From Nannocystaceae bacterium (GTDB lineage: Bacteria > Myxococcota_A > Polyangia > Nannocystales > Nannocystaceae), in assembly GCA_017996215.1 (NCBI GenBank), contig JAGOHL010000017.1:60118-124117 (forward strand): a stretch of 64,000 nt of DNA, read 5' to 3'. Of this stretch, positions 17,585 to 51,418 are shown piece after piece. The position numbers and the translations under genes are program-made. Numbering within the stretch: position 1 is the stretch's first letter; each line of letters opens with the position of its first letter. The notes under the pieces are model-generated. The model saw only the letters and a list, made by a program, of their open reading frames with translations. It had not been told where the DNA came from and searched no databases.

Positions 17585-18451
17585 TCAAGGACGCGCGGTG
17601 GGATCGAGCACGCAGCGGAACCCGATCACGACGTGGCGCAGCGTAGGCGCGACCAAGCGCCGCGACGACGCGCGCGCGCGCCACGATGGGTCGCTCCATG
17701 CGGCGCCCTTCACGACCGCATGGCCGCGCTCGAAGCTCGCCGTCCACTCGGCGGCGTTGCCCGCGAGATCCTGCACACCGTGCGGGCCCGCGGTCGCTGG
17801 CCGCGCTCCGACCGGCTGCAAGTCACCCGCACCGCCCTCGCGGGTGTTGACCAGCGACGCGACGAAGCGGTCGCCCCACGGATACACGCGGGCATCGTCG
17901 CCACGGGCCGCTCGCTCCCACTGCGCCTCGGTCGGCAGCGAGCCGAAGCCGCGATGCTGCTCGCCCCACCACTCGCAGTAGGCCGCGGCCTCGGGTTGGC
18001 TCACCAACACGGCCGGTGCGTGCTCGCGCTCGCGACGAGGACGGCCCTGCACCCACGTGAACGTGCGCGGGTCGCCGCCCGGCAGCTCGTCGTCGAGCGC
18101 CTGCGTACGCGCCCACGTCTGCCGGTCGACCCATGGCTCCGCGGCACCGGTCGCGTAGACGTAGCGGGCGTACTCCTGCTGTGTCACCGGGTGCACCATC
18201 ATGTGATAGGTGCCGATGCGCGCACGATGCCGTGCGAGCTCGCGTCGCACCGAGGTCGCGGCCGCCCGCGCATCGCCGCCGAGCTTCACGGCGTCGTCGA
18301 TCGCCGCCGTGCGCTCGTCGAGCGAGGCTCCCATCGCGAACCATCCGCCCGCGATCGTGACGGTCTCGCTGGTGTCCACGCCGGCGTGGACGCAACCGCC
18401 GAGCGCCAGTGCGAGCAACCAGCCTGAGGGCGCCTGGATCGCGGTTGGCAT
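17585..18451 (-). CDS. FGE-sulfatase (SUMF1/formylglycine-generating enzyme) domain lipoprotein
   Basis: Lipoprotein signal (LALALGGC), then 'IAGGWFAMGAS...' and C-terminal 'GFRCV' motifs characteristic of the FGE-sulfatase fold. Confidence 0.7.
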   Translation of the reverse strand: MPTAIQAPSGWLLALALGGCVHAGVDTSETVTIAGGWFAMGASLDERTAAIDDAVKLGGDARAAATSVRRELARHRARIGTYHMMVHPVTQQEYARYVYATGAAEPWVDRQTWARTQALDDELPGGDPRTFTWVQGRPRREREHAPAVLVSQPEAAAYCEWWGEQHRGFGSLPTEAQWERAARGDDARVYPWGDRFVASLVNTREGGAGDLQPVGARPATAGPHGVQDLAGNAAEWTASFERGHAVVKGAAWSDPSWRARASSRRLVAPTLRHVVIGFRCVLDPTARP

Positions 18452-18993: not shown

Positions 18994-19494
18994 CTAGAAC
19001 TCGATGCGCCAGGCGATCGCGAAGCCGCGCCCACGCGAGTAGGCACGAAGGCTGTGGCGCTGCCGCAGCCGACCGTCGCGCCAGATCCCGAGCACCGGCA
19101 GGCCGGCGGCGGCCACCGAGCCGAGGGCCGTGAGCGCCGAGGCGCCCGCACCCGGTCGCTGCAGCAACGTATCGCCGCGCATCTGCGCGAGGTCCAACAC
19201 CAGCTGCTCGGCTCGCTCGCGGGCATCGGTCGGCTGCGTGTTGATCGAGTCACCCGCCATGAGCCATCGCGCCCACGTCAGCTCGCGGCCCAGGCGATTC
19301 TCCTGTCCGAGCCACGGCCGCAGCGTGCCAGGGGTCGCCGCGGCATCGGTGCGGAGCAACACCGCGCCGTCGGACGGCGGCTCGCCCTCGTCGGCGTGGG
19401 CCGGACGCCCGAGCATCGACGCCAGCGCGCAGCCGAGCCCGAGGGCCGCCGCGCGGTGGAGCCGAATCCCGGCCATGGGACGAGCGTGCGTCAC
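18994..19494 (-). CDS. Hypothetical secreted protein (C-terminal Phe), encoded downstream of the ECF sigma factor
   Basis: Signal peptide (AALGLGCALASMLGRPAHA). 166 aa, ending 'AWRIEF'. Located 176 bp downstream of the sigma gene on the same strand. No known domain. Confidence 0.4.
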   Translation of the reverse strand: MTHARPMAGIRLHRAAALGLGCALASMLGRPAHADEGEPPSDGAVLLRTDAAATPGTLRPWLGQENRLGRELTWARWLMAGDSINTQPTDARERAEQLVLDLAQMRGDTLLQRPGAGASALTALGSVAAAGLPVLGIWRDGRLRQRHSLRAYSRGRGFAIAWRIEF

Positions 19495-19670
19495 GTCATA
19501 TCAAGCTAACCGCAGCCGCACCCGCTTGGGAAGCCCGTCGATGACGCGACCGGCCGGTCGAGCGGCGGCGCGGGCGGCCAACCCACACCGAGGGGTCGCC
19601 CCTTTGGTGCTCGGCCGGATGGCGGCTCACACAATCGGCAGCGGCGGCCTCGCCGGCGCGCGATCCAGCA

Positions 19671-20297
19671 CTACGCGGGCGAGCCGTCGTCGCGGCCGAA
19701 GTCTCGCTGGAGCGCAGCCGCCCAACGCTCCAGGTCGTCGACCGTGCTGCGAATCAGCTGATCGGAGACATGCATGCCCTCGATCCGGTCGCGCAGCATC
19801 TGTCGCGCGCGGAACAGGCGGCTCTTCACCGTGCCCGGCTGAACCCCGAGCACGGTCGCGATGTCGGCCACGCCCATGCCCTCCCAGTAGTGCAGCTCGA
19901 CGCAGATCTGGAAGTCGATCGGAATGCTGCGCAGGCCCTTGAGCAGCAGCTTCTTCTCCTCGTGCAGCGCCCGCAACTGCGACGGCGTGCCCATGAGGTC
20001 CTCGACCGAGAACTCGAGGAAGTCCTCGAGCTTCCCGTGGGTGCGCTTGCTGCGGTACTGGTGGAACAGCAGGTGCCGCGCGATGCCCAGCAGGTACGCG
20101 CGGAAGGTGCCGTCCTTGATGCGATCGAAGCCCTCGAGGCTGGCCAGGAAGGTCCGTTGCGTGAGGTCGTCGACGTCGTTGTCGATCTTGCTGCGGAAGA
20201 AGCGATAGACGCTGCTGAAGTGGCGATCGATGAGCTCGTTGCCCGCCGCCTTGTCGCCGTCCTTCCAGCGCTTCAGCAGTTCGAAGTCGTCACTCAA
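19671..20297 (-). CDS. ECF-type RNA polymerase sigma factor (sigma-70 family, group 4)
   Basis: Sigma-70 region 2 (DDLTQRTFLASLEGFDRIKDGTFRAYLLGIARH) and region 4 HTH (GMGVADIATVLGVQPGTVKSRLFRAR). Start set at TTG 20297 with AGGA 7 bp upstream, matching the N-terminus of the paralog at 49142 (DFELL...). The track ORF extends to 20390. Short C-terminal extension after region 4. Confidence 0.8.
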   Translation of the reverse strand: MSDDFELLKRWKDGDKAAGNELIDRHFSSVYRFFRSKIDNDVDDLTQRTFLASLEGFDRIKDGTFRAYLLGIARHLLFHQYRSKRTHGKLEDFLEFSVEDLMGTPSQLRALHEEKKLLLKGLRSIPIDFQICVELHYWEGMGVADIATVLGVQPGTVKSRLFRARQMLRDRIEGMHVSDQLIRSTVDDLERWAAALQRDFGRDDGSPA

Positions 20298-20414: not shown

Positions 20415-21221
20415 CTACCGATGCAGCACTCGGGCGGGTTCTCGAAACGCACGCAGGAACCACAGCACACCCGCGGCGAGCACCGCCAACGAGAACAGCC
20501 CGCACACCAGCCCCCAGATCCAGTACGTGCCCCCGAGTGCCTGCGCGATCACGGCGGTGTCCGACGGCATGTTGCCGACCGCGGTCGCGGCGACGTCGGT
20601 GAAGAGGTAGTCGGCCCGCGAGAACACCGACAGCGCCAGCTGGGTCGCGAGGAACACCGCGCCCAGCTGGGCGGACGCCGCGTTGCCGCGCACCGCCAGC
20701 CACACGAGCACGCCAGCGACGACGGCAGTGAAGCCGATGCCGAAGCCGTTGCGCACGAACAACGCCAGCGCGAGCACCAGGCCGATCGCAGTGAGCCACA
20801 GGAACGCCCGCGCGCCGCGTCGCGAGCGACCCGAGGCGAACGCGATCGCGGCCACGATCGCAGGCCCGAGCAGTCCGCCCGCGGCGGTGATCGCATGGGT
20901 GACGGCGCCGCCCGAGCCGCTGTGACTCGCGACGCCGGAGCCGTCGGCATACATCACCAACGACTCGAAGCGCCCGCCGGTGAGCATCGCGGCGACGCCG
21001 TGCCCGAGCTCGTGGAACAGCGTCGACAGCAGCAACAGCGGGTAGGCCAGCAACGCGCCGAACGGAATCAGATACAGCGCGAGCGTGAGCACCACGCTCC
21101 ACTTCAGGGCGGCGCGCGCACGGCGGCGCGCTGCCGCGTCCTCGAGCCAGTCGGACAATTGTCGCGATCCCATGCGCAGTGCTCCCCCCGAATTGCTGCA
21201 CCCTCCAACGGCCCGGCGCAA
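20415..21221 (-). CDS. M50-family (site-2-protease-like) membrane metallopeptidase
   Basis: HExxH 'HELGHG' inside a TM helix plus multiple TM segments. 268 aa, no PDZ domain. Lies 117 bp upstream of the ECF sigma gene on the same strand. Confidence 0.65.
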   Translation of the reverse strand: MRRAVGGCSNSGGALRMGSRQLSDWLEDAAARRRARAALKWSVVLTLALYLIPFGALLAYPLLLLSTLFHELGHGVAAMLTGGRFESLVMYADGSGVASHSGSGGAVTHAITAAGGLLGPAIVAAIAFASGRSRRGARAFLWLTAIGLVLALALFVRNGFGIGFTAVVAGVLVWLAVRGNAASAQLGAVFLATQLALSVFSRADYLFTDVAATAVGNMPSDTAVIAQALGGTYWIWGLVCGLFSLAVLAAGVLWFLRAFREPARVLHR

Positions 21222-46042: not shown

Positions 46043-49000
46043 TCACGGCTTGGCGCGCGCCCGCGCGAGCCACGGATCGTCGGCGCTGGCCATCGCACGC
46101 ACCGCAGGCACCCGCTCGAAGAAGCCGCGCGCTGCCTCGGCATCACCCCGTGCACGGGCCGCCTCGCCCGAGAACACCAGGCACGGCGAGATCGCGGCGG
46201 CCCAGCTCCAGTCGAAGTTGCGGGGTTCGACGATCGGCCGGCACGCCGCCAGTACGCCGTCGTGGTCGCCCGCGTCGTGCAGCAGGCGCGCGCGGTGGAA
46301 GTGGGCGGCGAAGATGAAGCGGGCGTCGAGCGCCAATGCAGCGACCTCGTGCCAGTGGGCCGCCGCGGCCTTCGGGTCGCCCTTCGCCTCGGCCGCGAAG
46401 GCGGCCGCGACCTCGCGCACCGGTGCGAACTCGCTGGTCGACGTGGCCGCGGCCGCAGGCCCCTCGAGCGCGGCGGTCAGCAGCGCAAGGGCGATCTCGA
46501 AGCGCACGTCGCGACGCAAGGTGGCCTCGACCGCGTGCTCGCGCAGGCGCTCCAGCTCGAGCAGCCGCGTTCGGTCGCCGCCGATCGACTCGAGCGTGGC
46601 CAGGGAGATCCACGACATGCTGCTCGAGTTGGTCAGCGCCCCCCGCAGCAAGCCCGCGCGCGCGCGCTCGAAGCTCGCCCGGCCGCACGCCGCATCGCCG
46701 CGTGCGGTGCACAGACCGAGCTCGTGCAGTGGATCGAAGCTGGGATCGCGATCGGTCCGCTGTCGCACGCGCGCGAGCGCGAGCGCGTAGTCGCCCGCGG
46801 CCGCGTGCCAGCCCAGCGCCTGCACGAAGGCATAGCCGTCGTCCTCCGCGAACGGCGACAGCAGCTCGAGCGCGCCACGGTAGTCACGCTCGAGTCCGCG
46901 TCGGCGTGCGCGCCAGAACGCGAGAAACTGCGGCGCTTGCTCGGCGCCGGCGGCCGCGTCGAGTGCCCAGTCGACGGTGGGCAGGTCCTCGATCGCGGCC
47001 GCGCGATCGAGCACGTGGCTGAGCCCACTGCCGAAGCCGGGCGAGAGCGCGTGCAGACGTCGGAACTCCGCCACCGCGCCCGCGCCGTCACCACCGTGGT
47101 AGAGGCACTCGAAGAGCCCGTAGGCGAGGTAGACCTCGCGGGGAAAGGCCGCCGTGGCCTCGCGCCAGCGGGGCAGCGCGGCGGCGGGACCATCGCGCAG
47201 CTGTACGAGGTTGGCGTCGACATAGCGGCGCTTGGGCTCGGAGAGCTCGCCGGCGCCGGCGAGCTCGAGCTCCGCGCGGGCCTCCTCTTCGAGCCCGAGC
47301 CAGCCGGCGAGGATGCCACCGTAGAAGTGGGCGTCGACGGCATCGGGCTGCAGGCGTCGGGCTTCGTCGAGGTAGCCCAGCGCCAGCGCGAGGTCGTGCC
47401 GCTCGAGCGCAGCGACCCCGAGCGCGAGGTTCTGGGCGTAGTCCGTCGGCCGCGGCGCAGCGGCGGGCCCCTCGAGCGGATGACCGAGCACGTGCACCGC
47501 GAGCTCGCGCGCCAGCTCTCGCACCGCCTCGGCGAGGCCGTTCGCATCGGTCGACCGATGCTGCTCCCACTCGACCTCGCCGTCGGGGGTGCGCAGGCGC
47601 AGCGTGACCTCGTAGCCATCGCCGTGGGCCGCGACGACCCCCGAGACCAACGCGGTGGCACCGAATGCGGCGACGACCTCGGGCAGCTCCGCCGCCGGGC
47701 TGCCACCGAGGGCGGTCTTGAGGCGGTGGTAGCGAACGACACGGATGCCCTCGCGGTCGCGCAGCTCCTGCTCGACGAGCTCGGGCAAGCCGTCGACCGC
47801 CCACGAGAGCCGCGGGTCGTCGACCACGTCGAAGGGCTGGAACGCGAGCACCGGCGGCCCCTGGACCGGGGCAGCGGCAACCACCGCGACTGGCGGCTCG
47901 GCCGGCATGCGACCGACCGCGAGCCCGATGCCCACCGCCACCGCAATCGCGCCCCCGATCACGGTCGCACGCACGCGGCGACGTCGGCGACCACGACGCT
48001 GCTCGATCGCCTGCAGCAGCGCGTGCATCGACGGCCAGCGCCGCGTGCGATCGGGCGCGAGTCCCCGCGCGATGATCGACGACAGCCACTGCGGCGCGCC
48101 GGCACCATCGGCCGGCGCCTCGAAGCTGCCCGCGGCCTTGAGCTCGGCGAGGGCCTGGAGCGGCAGCCGCGGGAACGGGCCGCGGCGGTAGATGCCGCCG
48201 AACAGCGCCACGCAGAACGCGTACTGATCGCTGCTCGCGTCGGCCTCGTCGCCGCGCATCTGCTCCGGTGCCATGAAGTACGGCGTGCCCATCACGATGC
48301 CGGCCTGGGTCTCGAGCTCGCCGGCCGACAGTCGCAGCGCATGTGCACTGTCGCTGGCCGACTCACGCGGCCGACCGTCGCTCACCGGATCGATGCCGCG
48401 CGCGAGCCCGAAATCCGCCACGCGAACCCGACCATCCCGGCCGCGCAGCACGTTGGCGGGCTTGAAGTCCCGGTGCAGGACGCCGGCCGCGTGCGCCGCC
48501 GCGAGGCCGTGCCCCGCGGCCAAGAAGGCGTCGAGCACCTCCTCCCACGACCGCGGCGCCGCGGCCAACCACGCATCGAGGTCCTCGCCCTCGACCAGCT
48601 CCATCACCACGAACACGTTGCGTCGCTCGGCGTCGGTGCCCGGTGCCGCGTCCGCGAGGTAGTCGCCGACGTCGTAGACCGGCACGACGTTGGGGTGCGA
48701 GATGCGAGCGATCGCGCGGGCCTCTCGCAACAATCGCGCGGCGCCGTGGGAGCCGACGTCGGCGACATTGACCAGCTTGATCGCAACCTTGCGACGCAGC
48801 TCGGGGTCCCAGCCCCGGTACACCACGCCCATGCCGCCGCGGCCGAGCGGCTCGCCGAGCTCGTAGCGATCGACGCGCAACGCCGTGGCGCCGCCGCCGA
48901 ACATGCGCTGTTCGAGCCGCGCGAGTGACTGACGCTCCTCGGGCGCGAGGTCGCCGAGCGGCTCCTCGCGTTGGGTCGGGTCGTCGTCGTCGCGCTGCAT
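46043..49000 (-). CDS. Serine/threonine protein kinase with TM segment and large TPR-like extracytoplasmic domain
   Basis: Hanks kinase motifs 'LGRGGMGVVY', 'VAIK', 'HRDFKPANVL', 'DFGLA', 'GTPYFMAPE'. TM helix (ATVIGGAIAVAVGIGLAVG), ~600 aa helical-repeat C-terminal region. Start ATG 49000; the track ORF continues to 49444 as an antisense shadow of the sigma gene. Confidence 0.85.
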   Translation of the reverse strand: MQRDDDDPTQREEPLGDLAPEERQSLARLEQRMFGGGATALRVDRYELGEPLGRGGMGVVYRGWDPELRRKVAIKLVNVADVGSHGAARLLREARAIARISHPNVVPVYDVGDYLADAAPGTDAERRNVFVVMELVEGEDLDAWLAAAPRSWEEVLDAFLAAGHGLAAAHAAGVLHRDFKPANVLRGRDGRVRVADFGLARGIDPVSDGRPRESASDSAHALRLSAGELETQAGIVMGTPYFMAPEQMRGDEADASSDQYAFCVALFGGIYRRGPFPRLPLQALAELKAAGSFEAPADGAGAPQWLSSIIARGLAPDRTRRWPSMHALLQAIEQRRGRRRRRVRATVIGGAIAVAVGIGLAVGRMPAEPPVAVVAAAPVQGPPVLAFQPFDVVDDPRLSWAVDGLPELVEQELRDREGIRVVRYHRLKTALGGSPAAELPEVVAAFGATALVSGVVAAHGDGYEVTLRLRTPDGEVEWEQHRSTDANGLAEAVRELARELAVHVLGHPLEGPAAAPRPTDYAQNLALGVAALERHDLALALGYLDEARRLQPDAVDAHFYGGILAGWLGLEEEARAELELAGAGELSEPKRRYVDANLVQLRDGPAAALPRWREATAAFPREVYLAYGLFECLYHGGDGAGAVAEFRRLHALSPGFGSGLSHVLDRAAAIEDLPTVDWALDAAAGAEQAPQFLAFWRARRRGLERDYRGALELLSPFAEDDGYAFVQALGWHAAAGDYALALARVRQRTDRDPSFDPLHELGLCTARGDAACGRASFERARAGLLRGALTNSSSMSWISLATLESIGGDRTRLLELERLREHAVEATLRRDVRFEIALALLTAALEGPAAAATSTSEFAPVREVAAAFAAEAKGDPKAAAAHWHEVAALALDARFIFAAHFHRARLLHDAGDHDGVLAACRPIVEPRNFDWSWAAAISPCLVFSGEAARARGDAEAARGFFERVPAVRAMASADDPWLARARAKP

Positions 49001-49141
49001 CGTCGTTGGTGGCACGCACGGACACGCGGGCGACGGCTGCTCCGCGCCGTTGCACCGGGAACGTCGCCAGGCACATGCTATCGCAAGCGAGCGAGCGTCG
49101 TCGCGCCGGGCTTTGTGGCATGATCGCGCTCGACCGCGCGC

Positions 49142-49792
49142 ATGGCCGAGATCACCGACTTCGAGCTGCTCGGCCAGTGGCGCGCCGGCGACACCGCGGC
49201 GGGCAACCGCCTGCTGCGTCGGCACTTCCAGAGCGTGCATCGCTTCTTCCGCAACAAGGTCGACGGCGACATCGACGACCTCATCCAGCGCACGTTCCTG
49301 GGCCTCGTCGAGGCCTTGCCGCGCTTCCGCGAGCACGCGCAGTTCAAGACCTTCTTGCTCGCCGTCGCGCGCAATCATCTGCTGCTGCACTACCGCGAGC
49401 GCGCGCAGCTGCAGAAGCGCAACGCCGAGGACGTCTCGGTACACGACCTCGGCGTCGCTGCGGCGCCCAGCGGGGCCATCGCGCTGCGCGAGGAGCAGCA
49501 GCTCCTGCTGACGGCGCTACGCCGGCTGCCACTGGCGCTGCAGCTGACCGTGGAGCTGTTCTACTGGGAGCGGCTCGGCGTCGACGACATCGGGCTGGTG
49601 CTCGAGATCCCCGCCGGCACGGTGAAGAGTCGGCTCGCGCGCGCGCGCGACAACCTGCGCGCGACGCTGCAGCAGCTCGCGACCGCGCCCGAGGTCCGCA
49701 CCAGCTCGATCTCCGACCTCGAGCAGTGGGCACACTCGCTGCGCGACGTCGTGGCCGCACTCGACGGGGCCGTCAGCGGCGACGCGCAGTAG
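49142..49792 (+). CDS. ECF-type RNA polymerase sigma factor (paralog of 19671..20297)
   Basis: Region 2 'DDLIQRTFLGLVEALPRFREHAQFKTFLLAVARNH' and region 4 'RLGVDDIGLVLEIPAGTVKSRLARAR'. Alignable with the first sigma along most of its length (DFELL...W..GD.AAGN.L..RHF.SV.RFFR.K...D.DDL.QRTFL...E). Confidence 0.85.
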   Translation: MAEITDFELLGQWRAGDTAAGNRLLRRHFQSVHRFFRNKVDGDIDDLIQRTFLGLVEALPRFREHAQFKTFLLAVARNHLLLHYRERAQLQKRNAEDVSVHDLGVAAAPSGAIALREEQQLLLTALRRLPLALQLTVELFYWERLGVDDIGLVLEIPAGTVKSRLARARDNLRATLQQLATAPEVRTSSISDLEQWAHSLRDVVAALDGAVSGDAQ

Positions 49793-50405
49793 CTCGGCCC
49801 GCGCGCGCGACCGTCGGCGCCGGGGCCCGCTCGATCATTGCACGCACGAGCGCGTCGAGCTGCCGGCGCTGCTGCTCGACCGTGCTCGCACCCCACCCGG
49901 CACCGTGGCCCGCCTGCATCAAGAGCTGGGTCAGTACCGCCGGCTTGCCGCCAAAGCGATCGAGCGAAAGCTCGCCGGCGCGCGCGGCCGCCTTGAGCGT
50001 CGAGGTCATCAGCTCGACGAAGATGCGATCGCCATCCTCGATGATCTCGCGGGCGCGCGCGTCGCTCGACTCGAGCAGCTCGCGGGCGTGGGGCGAGGCA
50101 TCGACGAGTTCGTACACGGTGGTGAACTTCGCGGACAACATCGCCACCACCCGCTCGATGGGGTCGGGCAGCTGCGCGGCTGCACGCGCGCCGTCGACGA
50201 TGCGCGCGACCACGGCCTTGCACACGGCGACGAAGATGGCGTCCTTGTCCTCGAAGTGGGCATACAGCGTCGGCTTGGCGACGCCGGCCTCCTGGGCGAT
50301 GAGCTCGACGGTCGTGCGCCGGTAGCCGTAGCGCTGGAACAGCCGCGTGGCGGCGCGGACGATGGCGTCGTGCTTGGACGTGCCTGGGGTGCCACCCGGA
50401 GCCAT
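49773..50405 (-). CDS. TetR/AcrR-family transcriptional regulator
   Basis: N-terminal HTH 'RAATRLFQRYGYRRTTVELIAQEAGVAKPTLYAHFEDKDAIF'. Start ATG 50405. 20-bp convergent overlap with the sigma gene 3' end. Confidence 0.8.
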   Translation of the reverse strand: MAPGGTPGTSKHDAIVRAATRLFQRYGYRRTTVELIAQEAGVAKPTLYAHFEDKDAIFVAVCKAVVARIVDGARAAAQLPDPIERVVAMLSAKFTTVYELVDASPHARELLESSDARAREIIEDGDRIFVELMTSTLKAAARAGELSLDRFGGKPAVLTQLLMQAGHGAGWGASTVEQQRRQLDALVRAMIERAPAPTVARAGRATARRR

Positions 50406-50471
50406 CGATGCCGCCGCAGGGTACCACCAACGCACGTACGGCCGGGTCGCGTGCGGGACGGTGAAACCATT

Positions 50472-50497
50472 TGAACCGTTCTGACGTTTGTGGTTCA
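50472..50497. promoter_or_regulatory. Inverted repeat in the TetR/SDR divergent region (candidate operator)
   Basis: TGAACC-N14-GGTTCA between starts 50405 and 50513. Confidence 0.35.
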
Positions 50498-50512
50498 GTT
50501 CGGAAGCCACCC

Positions 50513-51418
50513 ATGACCACCGCAGACTCCACCCCCGCCGTCCTCGTCACTGGCTGTTCCTCTGGCATCGGTCGCGCGACCGCGCTGCGGTTGGCGCGGG
50601 CCGGCAGCGGCTGGCGGGTGTGGGCCACCGCGCGGCGGCCGACCGAGCTGGCCGAGCTGGCCGCGGCCGGCTGCCGCACGCTCGCGCTCGACGTCTGCGA
50701 TCGCGAGTCGATGGCCGCGGCGGTCGCGGCCGTCGAGGCCGAGCACGGCCACGTCGCGGCGTTGATCAACAACGCCGGCTACTCGCAGACGGGCGCGTTC
50801 GAGGCGGTGCCGCTCGAGGCGGTGCGCCGTCAGTTCGAGACCAACGTGTTCGGCGTGATCGCGCTGACGCAGCTGGTCCTACCGGGCATGCGCCGCGCCG
50901 GCGCCGGTCGCATCATCAACCTGAGCTCGATGGGCGGCAAGCTGGTGTTCCCCGGCGGCGGCTACTACCACGCCACCAAGCACGCGATCGAAGCCCTGAG
51001 CGATGCGCTGCGCTTCGAGGTGCGCAGCTTCGGTGTCGAGGTGGTGCTGATCGAGCCCGGCCTCATCAAGAGCGGCTTCAGCGAGGCCGCGGTGTCGAGC
51101 ATGCAGCACCGTGAGGGCGTCGGTGCGACGTACGACGTGTTCCACGACGCGGTCGCGCGCGCGACCAAGGAGATCTACGACAAGGGGCCGCTCGCCGCGT
51201 TCGCCGGCGTGCCCGACGACGTCGCGAAGGTCATCGAGCGCGCGCTCGCAGCCAAGCGTCCACGTGCGCGCTACACCGTGACGATGTCGGCCAAGCTCTT
51301 GCTCGCGCAGCGGCGATGGTCGAGCGATCGCGTGTGGGACTGGTTCCTGCGGCAGAACTTCCCCTCGCCCGCACCGCTCGGCGCACTCACGGCGGCGGCG
51401 GAGCCCCGCGACGCTTGA
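50513..51418 (+). CDS. SDR-family oxidoreductase
   Basis: 'VLVTGCSSGIGRA' cofactor motif, 'NNAG', catalytic 'YHATKHA'. Divergent from the TetR gene. Confidence 0.85.
   Translation: MTTADSTPAVLVTGCSSGIGRATALRLARAGSGWRVWATARRPTELAELAAAGCRTLALDVCDRESMAAAVAAVEAEHGHVAALINNAGYSQTGAFEAVPLEAVRRQFETNVFGVIALTQLVLPGMRRAGAGRIINLSSMGGKLVFPGGGYYHATKHAIEALSDALRFEVRSFGVEVVLIEPGLIKSGFSEAAVSSMQHREGVGATYDVFHDAVARATKEIYDKGPLAAFAGVPDDVAKVIERALAAKRPRARYTVTMSAKLLLAQRRWSSDRVWDWFLRQNFPSPAPLGALTAAAEPRDA

Follow-up and report, generated by a model that had tools for sequence, protein, structure and literature searches.

The sequence analysed here is a 64,000-nt stretch of a Nannocystaceae bacterium contig (JAGOHL010000017.1), hereafter referred to as the window. 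Within it, a gene for a membrane Ser/Thr kinase lies divergent to a gene for an extracytoplasmic function (ECF) sigma factor, which we call sigma 1; a second ECF sigma factor, sigma 2, is encoded elsewhere in the window. The G+C content is about 70-72% across the entire window, and real genes were separated from the many spurious open reading frames by third-codon-position G+C. The nearest public relatives of the window's proteins come from metagenome-assembled genomes of Nannocystaceae and other Myxococcota. The features of the locus, and the evidence on which each was called, are as follows.

19671..20297, minus strand: ECF sigma factor 2, TTG start, 208 aa (BLASTP paralog of sigma 1)
45405..45947, minus strand: 180-aa gene just downstream of the kinase, possible operon partner (kept with the kinase in the orthologous loci L001 and L002)
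46043..49000, minus strand: Hanks-type Ser/Thr receptor kinase, 985 aa (open reading frame, Pkinase match, catalytic motifs)
46046..47911, minus strand: predicted extracytoplasmic sensor region of the kinase, 622 aa, divergent TPR-like repeats (sub-threshold TPR_16 match, homologues)
47912..47968, minus strand: single transmembrane segment of the kinase, aa 345-363, ATVIGGAIAVAVGIGLAVG, after RRGRRRRRVR (hydropathy)
48011..48865, minus strand: kinase catalytic domain, aa 46-330 (Pfam Pkinase and PK_Tyr_Ser-Thr, motifs)
48896..48949, minus strand: conserved stretch before the kinase domain, aa 18-35, APEERQSLARLEQRMFGG, candidate sigma-docking element (common to sigma-linked kinases)
49001..49141, no strand assigned: divergent intergenic region, 141 bp (orthologous regions aligned)
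49057..49085, plus strand: GGGAAC-N17-ATCGCA, probably no functional element (present, unconserved, at chance level)
49116..49124, plus strand: extended -10-like box, TGGCATGAT, with 17 nt between its end and the sigma 1 ATG (conserved in orthologous regions)
49142..49792, plus strand: ECF sigma factor 1, 216 aa (Sigma70_r2 at aa 26-87, Sigma70_r4_2 at aa 120-171)
49268..49294, plus strand: region 2.2 motif of sigma 1, D43-I-D-D-L-I-Q-R50-T51 (family alignment)
49436..49471, plus strand: linker of sigma 1 with Ser99 and A108-P109-S110 (family consensus S-P-S), candidate phospho-acceptors (family alignment)
49688..49780, plus strand: conserved C-terminal tail of sigma 1, aa 183-213, S188-S189...L193-E-Q-W196-A197-H-S-L200 (family alignment)

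The minus-strand open reading frame 46043..49444 contains an ATG at 49000, from which the 985-aa kinase is read. This length is backed by a public protein (P0121) that is equally long and 98% identical, one of the few full-length relatives found (P0121-P0128). Pfam Pkinase matches aa 46-278 with an E-value of 1.2e-31, and the motifs by which Hanks-type kinases are recognized (GRGGMG, VAIK72, HRD176, DFG196 and APE244) are all intact. The sole hydrophobic segment, at aa 345-363 (Kyte-Doolittle maximum 2.13), is preceded by an Arg-rich stretch and is also found in the orthologs, and the membrane Ser/Thr kinase named in the original prediction is thereby upheld. With one membrane span, the C-terminal 622 aa is expected outside the cytoplasm, and we infer that it lies there. 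Conservation of this sensor region is limited to the orthologs. The label "TPR-like" that it had been given is acceptable, but weak as judged from sequence: TPR models pass the Pfam cut-offs at the homologous region of one ortholog (TPR_19, 35.3 bits in L003) and of one full-length homologue (TPR_2, 32.5 bits in P0128), but TPR_16 on the window kinase itself reaches only 22 bits against a cut-off of 32.7.

The kinase and sigma 1 genes are divergent and separated by 141 bp, as the original prediction stated, and no upstream in-frame start was found for sigma 1. Sigma 1 is 100% identical to the public protein P0001, and its orthologs are 79-82% identical. The divergent kinase, sensor region included, is kept in all four orthologous loci (L001-L004). 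A wider scan, with one genome taken per species, yielded 27 loci of the sigma 1 family, whose encoded members are 43-82% identical. The immediate neighbour of the family sigma is a kinase in 18/27 of these loci, with 6 kinases divergent, 10 upstream on the same strand and 2 downstream; most of the 10 same-strand upstream kinases are separated from the sigma gene by about 10 nt or overlap it. Further sigma-kinase pairs came from protein-collection look-ups (L085, L089 and L095), the last of these in the complete genome of cultured Nannocystis punicea (CP114040.1). By comparison, a control set of 53 loci encoding distant ECFs has any kinase within 8 kb in 2 cases. The kinase at 46043..49000 is the only one in the 64-kb window. 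Since many lineages keep the linkage even where gene order differs, there is strong evidence that the kinase and sigma 1 form a functional pair.

No anti-sigma gene was found beside either sigma of the window, the flanking genes being without an anti-sigma domain, though one encoded at a distance is conceivable. On one side of sigma 1 lies the kinase, on the other a convergent TetR gene that overlaps the last 20 nt of sigma 1. ECFs that depend on an anti-sigma usually have its gene at +1 in the same transcript, and neither sigma's neighbourhood has this arrangement. What is present at the sigma 1 locus is the combination that marks kinase-associated ECFs, namely a conserved kinase neighbour and no co-encoded anti-sigma.

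Sequence within the kinases also tracks the pairing. Immediately ahead of the first kinase-domain strand, the sigma-linked kinases have in common a stretch with the consensus D-h-E-x2-R-h-R-A-x-h-x3-h-F-[GK], where h is hydrophobic; from the hydrophobic spacing, our guess is that it is helical. In a first blind pick, drawn from the kinase homolog list ahead of neighbourhood inspection, three kinases with the stretch had a family sigma 0-1 gene away, and two without it had none within 3.5 kb. We then scored independent kinases with a hidden Markov model (HMM) of the stretch trained on 15 sigma-anchored kinases, keeping training and test sets separate; among the test kinases are 56 from a metagenome scan anchored on kinases, in which the N-terminus could be read. 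The scores are bimodal. A family sigma lies within 2.5 kb of 7/8 kinases scoring at least 17 bits, the eighth running off its contig, and near 2/56 of those scoring at most 6.5 bits, both of which are of the same small kinase type (Fisher p = 4e-7). Restricted to the unbiased kinase-anchored subset, the counts are 3/4 for stretch-bearing kinases and 0/52 for the others (p = 1.4e-4).

Kinases with neither stretch nor sigma share 52-53% identity with the window kinase, compared to 32-36% for the sigma-linked, stretch-bearing kinases of the L007 type, and the association is therefore not due to kinase-domain similarity. The same identities rule out that the sigma-linked kinases are one close clade. 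Based on this pattern in the sequences, we regard the stretch as a candidate sigma-docking element.

A separate observation concerns the kinases at large. By eye, a pre-kinase motif of the form ...h-x3-L-F-[GDEK] is present in roughly two-thirds of the 115 closest Nannocystaceae kinases (P0121-P0240), WD40-repeat kinases included. If this motif marks sigma partners, Nannocystaceae genomes would hold a very large kinase-sigma network.

Turning to the sigma factors, Sigma70_r2 and Sigma70_r4_2 are the only domains in either protein, which places both among the ECF (group 4) sigmas. TIGR02937 scores the two at 82 and 70 bits (cut-off 42.9), and the generic sigma70-ECF superfamily model is the only NCBIfam model above its cut-off. 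A profile search with the sigma family against 1.84 billion cluster representatives returned 1,424 proteins at E <= 1e-30, and the kinase-linked family is therefore large; the same search returned about 305,000 ECF-like proteins at E <= 1e-3. Several genomes carry multiple paralogs of the family. We used an alignment of 108 members to derive the conservation percentages that follow.

Three features set this family apart, and all three are present in both window sigmas. In region 2.2, which in sigma 1 aligns with GDVPDVVQE of sigmaE, D45 is acidic in 94% of members and D46 in 100%. The position of the E in DxxDxxQE, residue 50, is R in 70% and Q in 27%, and acidic in none; its equivalent is E or D in 40/48 distant ECFs and E in sigmaE, AlgU and SigW. 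The second feature is the linker, where Ser or Thr occupies position 99 in 95% of members, position 108 in 86% and position 110 in 95%, with P109 in 96%. Conserved linker Ser/Thr, which the original prediction had proposed to look for with phospho-regulated ECF groups in mind, are thus present. In the HMMER alignment, S110 stands opposite the Glu of N-P-E in sigmaE, S-P-E in AlgU and L-P-E in SigW. The third feature follows region 4: a tail of about 35 residues with the motif [ST]188-T189-x3-[LF]-[ED]-x-W196-A197-x2-L200, in which position 189 is Ser or Thr in 96% (Thr in 94%), W196 is present in 100%, A197 in 99% and L200 in 96%. The tail of sigma 1 has no Pfam match, no Cys and no RCE/D motif. 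The short C-terminal tails that had been noticed on both sigmas are therefore real and conserved across the 108 members.

We note one departure among the family's kinase-linked sigmas. The sigma at L093 5907..6581 has lost the WA tail and carries A-P-E in place of S-P-S in the linker and VERT in place of QRT in region 2.2. We see in it a possible constitutively "charged" form.

Sigma 1 and sigma 2 had been put at roughly 45-50% identity by eye; BLASTP gives 97/207, or 47% (E 2e-59), and by sequence sigma 2 is a true paralog from the same family. No kinase for sigma 2 was found anywhere in the 64-kb window. An ortholog of sigma 2 with 84% identity has a 750-aa Pkinase and TPR gene 94 nt downstream, and one with 91% identity has no downstream kinase. 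We compared window positions 19495..19670 with L081 6640..8985 and with L086; the window at sigma 2 has neither the kinase nor the ABC-transporter cluster that follows the kinase elsewhere. In one related genome a single contig carries the orthologs of both sigmas at a distance of about 29 kb, matching the window. Since a kinase stands beside the 84% ortholog and none beside the window's copy, sigma 2 is, on this sequence comparison, an orphan of a kinase-linked lineage, its adjacent kinase having been lost. If any kinase acts on sigma 2, that kinase must come from another locus.

The genes flanking sigma 2 are a Peptidase_M50B gene and, 176 nt after sigma 2, a signal-peptide protein, p166 (18994..19494), which is not kept adjacent in sigma-2 orthologs. 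We rejected p166 as an anti-sigma for sigma 2, given its signal peptide, its lack of a Pfam match and its position about 4 kb away in the 91% ortholog (L086). The gene immediately preceding sigma 2, in the same orientation, encodes the Peptidase_M50B-like membrane metalloprotease (20415..21221, minus strand, 6.8e-36). This arrangement is kept in the examined sigma-2 orthologs with upstream sequence (L081, L082 and L086-L088), except in the 81% ortholog of L083. A Peptidase_S41 gene also lies near sigma 2, and a proteolytic link to sigma 2 is possible.

We modelled sigma 1 with AlphaFold2 (AF2) on the family alignment, obtaining a predicted local distance difference test score (pLDDT) of 88 and a predicted template modelling score (pTM) of 0.86. 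The tail is predicted as two helices, 183-191 and 193-213. By template modelling score (TM), the chain is closest to closed ECFs bound by anti-sigma factors (SigW/RsiW 0.81, CnrH/CnrY 0.76, EcfG/NepR 0.70) and fits polymerase-bound ECF forms poorly (about 0.3). The mean pLDDT of residues 91-120 is 92/75/75 with the tail and 73/61/61 without it, a shift in the models that hints that the tail may pack on the conserved linker. The idea that the tail is a fused mini anti-sigma locking the closed form was dropped: the closed form appears in the tail-less model too, and the closed model is thus no evidence for it.

These observations bear on two other explanations of the pair. Adjacency might reflect co-regulation, with the kinase being a target gene or merely sharing a promoter, and sigma 1 governed by its own tail through auto-inhibition or by an unlinked partner. 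Such a reading would accommodate the loss of the kinase from sigma 2 and its 91% ortholog and the conservation of tail and linker motifs in members without a kinase neighbour, and the rise in AF2 linker confidence recalls the linker-to-extension contacts reported in ECF41/42 (PMC7826278). We nevertheless find it improbable, as the linkage persists over three gene orders, many lineages and operons with overlapping genes or 10-nt gaps, and as the kinases carry the linkage-specific stretch. Protein-kinase-linked ECF groups are, moreover, typically without anti-sigma factors (PMC7826278).

The stretch could instead make the kinase a tethering anti-sigma, its membrane-anchored form holding sigma 1 until phosphorylation of the kinase itself or of the sigma frees it upon a signal. 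The stretch tracks sigma linkage, the kinase is anchored in the membrane and no anti-sigma gene lies beside the sigma, all of which would suit tethering; so would the acidic residues kept in region 2.2, with which the sigma might be active by default, and the resemblance of the AF2 fold to the SigW/RsiW and CnrH/CnrY complexes. However, AF2 commonly yields the closed form, here with or without the tail, and binding between kinase and sigma is purely hypothetical. In the Pfam scan of the kinase, which returned kinase and TPR families only, the stretch is unlike known anti-sigma domains. We consider tethering an unlikely account, about on a par with co-regulation.

Between the two genes, the GGGAAC at 49057-49062 and the ATCGCA at 49080-49085 are present where the original prediction placed them. 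Their proposed role as an autoregulated ECF-type promoter does not hold: the motif is missing from four orthologous intergenic regions, the pair occurs with up to 2 mismatches 4 times in the window against 6.5 expected, and nothing similar lies upstream of sigma 2. What is conserved, in 5/5 orthologous intergenic regions, is TGTGGCAT(G/C)(A/C)T, which reads as an extended -10 element (TGn followed by CATGAT, whose second and sixth positions are A and T) by consensus match only. A TGn[T/C]AnnnT box occurs 3-40 nt before the start in 17/29 family genes, usually at 6-10 nt, and is 73-fold denser near the start than farther upstream in these 29 genes. From this pattern, the family's sigma genes appear to have promoters of the housekeeping type and mRNAs with a short leader or none. 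Such a promoter with a short leader would therefore place the control of the sigma at the post-translational level.

TGnTAnnnT boxes, 6-10 nt before most family sigma starts, are likewise found before upstream kinase genes in L007, L008, L009 and L011. Together these boxes suggest, from sequence, that leaderless transcripts may be the rule for the kinase-sigma module (L007-L019 and other loci).

A housekeeping-like promoter suggests constitutive synthesis, and with the DxxD acidic residues retained it is conceivable that sigma 1 is active by default and that the kinase turns it off or marks it for degradation. Of the explanations weighed here we think this the least probable. Both characterised kinase-ECF pairs are activating (PMC8999054, PMC13147305). 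In addition, the E of QE is missing from the family and the Glu of sigmaE, AlgU and SigW is replaced by Ser, a pattern that fits a charge deficit which phosphate would repair.

Taken together, we propose, with a probability of roughly 0.6, that the kinase and sigma 1 are a dedicated receptor-kinase/ECF-sigma signalling pair of a Nannocystaceae-type myxobacterium, with no adjacent anti-sigma and with activation driven by the kinase. The functional link itself is well supported. By analogy with ECF43 and from the charge pattern, direct activating phosphorylation is the most likely mechanism, and the sites probably differ from the ECF43 examples, lying in the linker or the tail. The sigma 1 gene would have a short leader and an extended -10 promoter of the housekeeping type, leaving control to act post-translationally. 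An extracytoplasmic signal would activate the kinase, which would recruit the sigma, possibly via the conserved stretch before its kinase domain, and phosphorylate it at Ser110 and/or Ser99 of the linker or at Ser188/189 of the tail. The added negative charge would then allow the sigma to bind core RNA polymerase, in parallel with the role of pThr106 in EcfK and of the acidic residue that ordinary ECFs carry in the linker.

Several points weigh against this proposal. Phosphorylation, its site and its sign all come from sequence and analogy, and distant ECFs cannot be aligned reliably in the linker. Members without a kinase neighbour (sigma 2, L005, L006, L014 and L021) conserve the linker and tail Ser/Thr equally well, these residues may be structural, and sigma 1, with its acidic DxxD, may already be able to bind core polymerase. 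About a quarter of family loci have no adjacent kinase, with upstream DNA of less than 200 nt in 3/9 of the kinase-less loci. The linked kinase types L081/82 and L091 lack the stretch, and the linked sigma of L093 lacks the tail. AF2 predicts the closed fold for a tail-less chain as well (pTM 0.82 vs 0.86), leaving the shift in linker pLDDT as the one modelled basis for any role of the tail. A simple -35/-10 scan found no -35/-10 pair.

More tentatively, we hypothesize that the pair exemplifies a co-evolved two-protein module comprising about 1,400 sigma clusters at 50% identity, in which the stretch docks the sigma and the linker or tail, not region 2.2, is phosphorylated. It could then be a second, mechanistically distinct class of phosphorylation-gated ECFs, expanded in Nannocystaceae and Polyangia so that single genomes hold many paralogous pairs. 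The family-specific features offer concrete positions for a different phospho-switch: R50, S99, S110, S/T189, W196 and the stretch before the kinase domain. If the docking idea is true, the wiring of kinases to sigmas could be read from sequence in genomes with dozens of such kinases, and the pairs could serve as orthogonal switches.

Other genes of the window are recorded here for completeness. The 180-aa gene downstream of the kinase is 63% identical in L001 and L002, where it stays with the kinase; searches of Pfam and of PDB sequences gave no match, and its two HxT motifs (HHITVFG and PHITCFT) are reminiscent of 2H phosphoesterases. On the other side, the TetR-family gene (49773..50510, minus strand) is divergently paired with a short-chain dehydrogenase gene (50471..51418, plus strand), and both are retained beside the sigma-1 orthologs in L001 and L002. 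An 864-aa protein at 40507..43101 (minus strand; Pfam MVP_shoulder 2.3e-25, Vault_3 repeat 1.1e-10) is a bacterial homologue of the eukaryotic major vault protein. The sigma neighbourhoods also encode a stand-alone SnoaL_2 protein (43248..43646, plus strand) and an FGE-sulfatase-domain protein (17585..18451, minus strand).

Among known systems, the family resembles ECF41, ECF42, ECF238 and ECF29 in combining a conserved C-terminal addition, a conserved linker motif and no anti-sigma. Unlike in those groups, the sigma 1 tail is only about 35 aa, holds no SnoaL or TPR domain and co-occurs with a kinase; neither the Cys of ECF238 nor the RCE/D motif of ECF29 is found in it. Sigma 1 therefore has none of the extensions that define such groups (a SnoaL or TPR domain of >50 aa, a Cys-rich tail or RCE/D). 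A linker Ser/Thr as a candidate target of a Hanks kinase is shared with SigH of Mycobacterium tuberculosis, whose linker residues T106 and T110 are phosphorylated by PknB (cited in PMC13147305). Unlike sigma 1, SigH is under the anti-sigma RshA, its kinase is not a neighbour, and the effect of its phosphorylation is unknown.

In gene content the family also resembles the kinase-associated groups, which comprise ECF59-62, ECF217, ECF267, ECF283 and subgroups of ECF210, ECF27 and ECF40 (PMC7826278). As is usual in those groups, the sigma family has a kinase neighbour, no adjacent anti-sigma and a DAED-like motif. Our search of the literature on kinase-linked sigmas in myxobacteria found nothing specific to this family. 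From the published one-line descriptions alone ("Proteobacteria 100%", kinases present), ECF210 or ECF267 is the likeliest home of the family; for these two, no papers were found beyond the classification itself. The listed representatives of ECF59-62, ECF217 and ECF283 are from Planctomycetes and Actinobacteria, unlike our myxobacterial family. Kinase-linked groups outside ECF43 retain the DAED-like motif, and their mechanism is unknown (PMC8999054); reviews hold that, with an acidic 2.2 motif, they must operate differently from ECF43. The pair described here belongs to these known, largely uncharacterised kinase-associated ECFs outside ECF43.

ECF43 is the only group in which a kinase-ECF mechanism has been established experimentally (PMC8999054, PMC13147305). 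In Vibrio parahaemolyticus, the ECF43 sigma EcfP is encoded beside the transmembrane Hanks-type kinase PknT, its proposed activator, with no anti-sigma (PMC8999054), and the window has the same layout of a Hanks-type kinase gene beside the sigma and no adjacent anti-sigma. Region 2.2 of ECF43 sigmas has STTA or QTTA instead of the acidic DxxD/DAED, and a phospho-Thr restores the charge for beta' binding (PMC8999054, PMC13147305). In the sigma 1 family, by contrast, D45/D46 are 94-100% acidic with no Thr there, and what lacks charge is the position of the E in QE (R or Q) and possibly the linker; no WA tail has been reported for ECF43. Membership in ECF43 is ruled out by the retained acidic DxxD (D43-I-D45-D46). 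The originally predicted logic, with phosphorylation in place of anti-sigma control, therefore keeps its conserved pair and its lack of an adjacent anti-sigma but cannot take the form it has in ECF43. In the EcfK/PknS pair of Xanthomonas citri, T51 in region 2.2 is used and the linker residue T106 is a second activating site (PMC13147305). T106 supplies a charge that ordinary ECFs carry as Asp or Glu and meets a basic beta' pocket (PMC13147305). The sigma family has 95%-conserved Ser/Thr in its linker, of which S99 and S110 are no more than candidate counterparts of T106.

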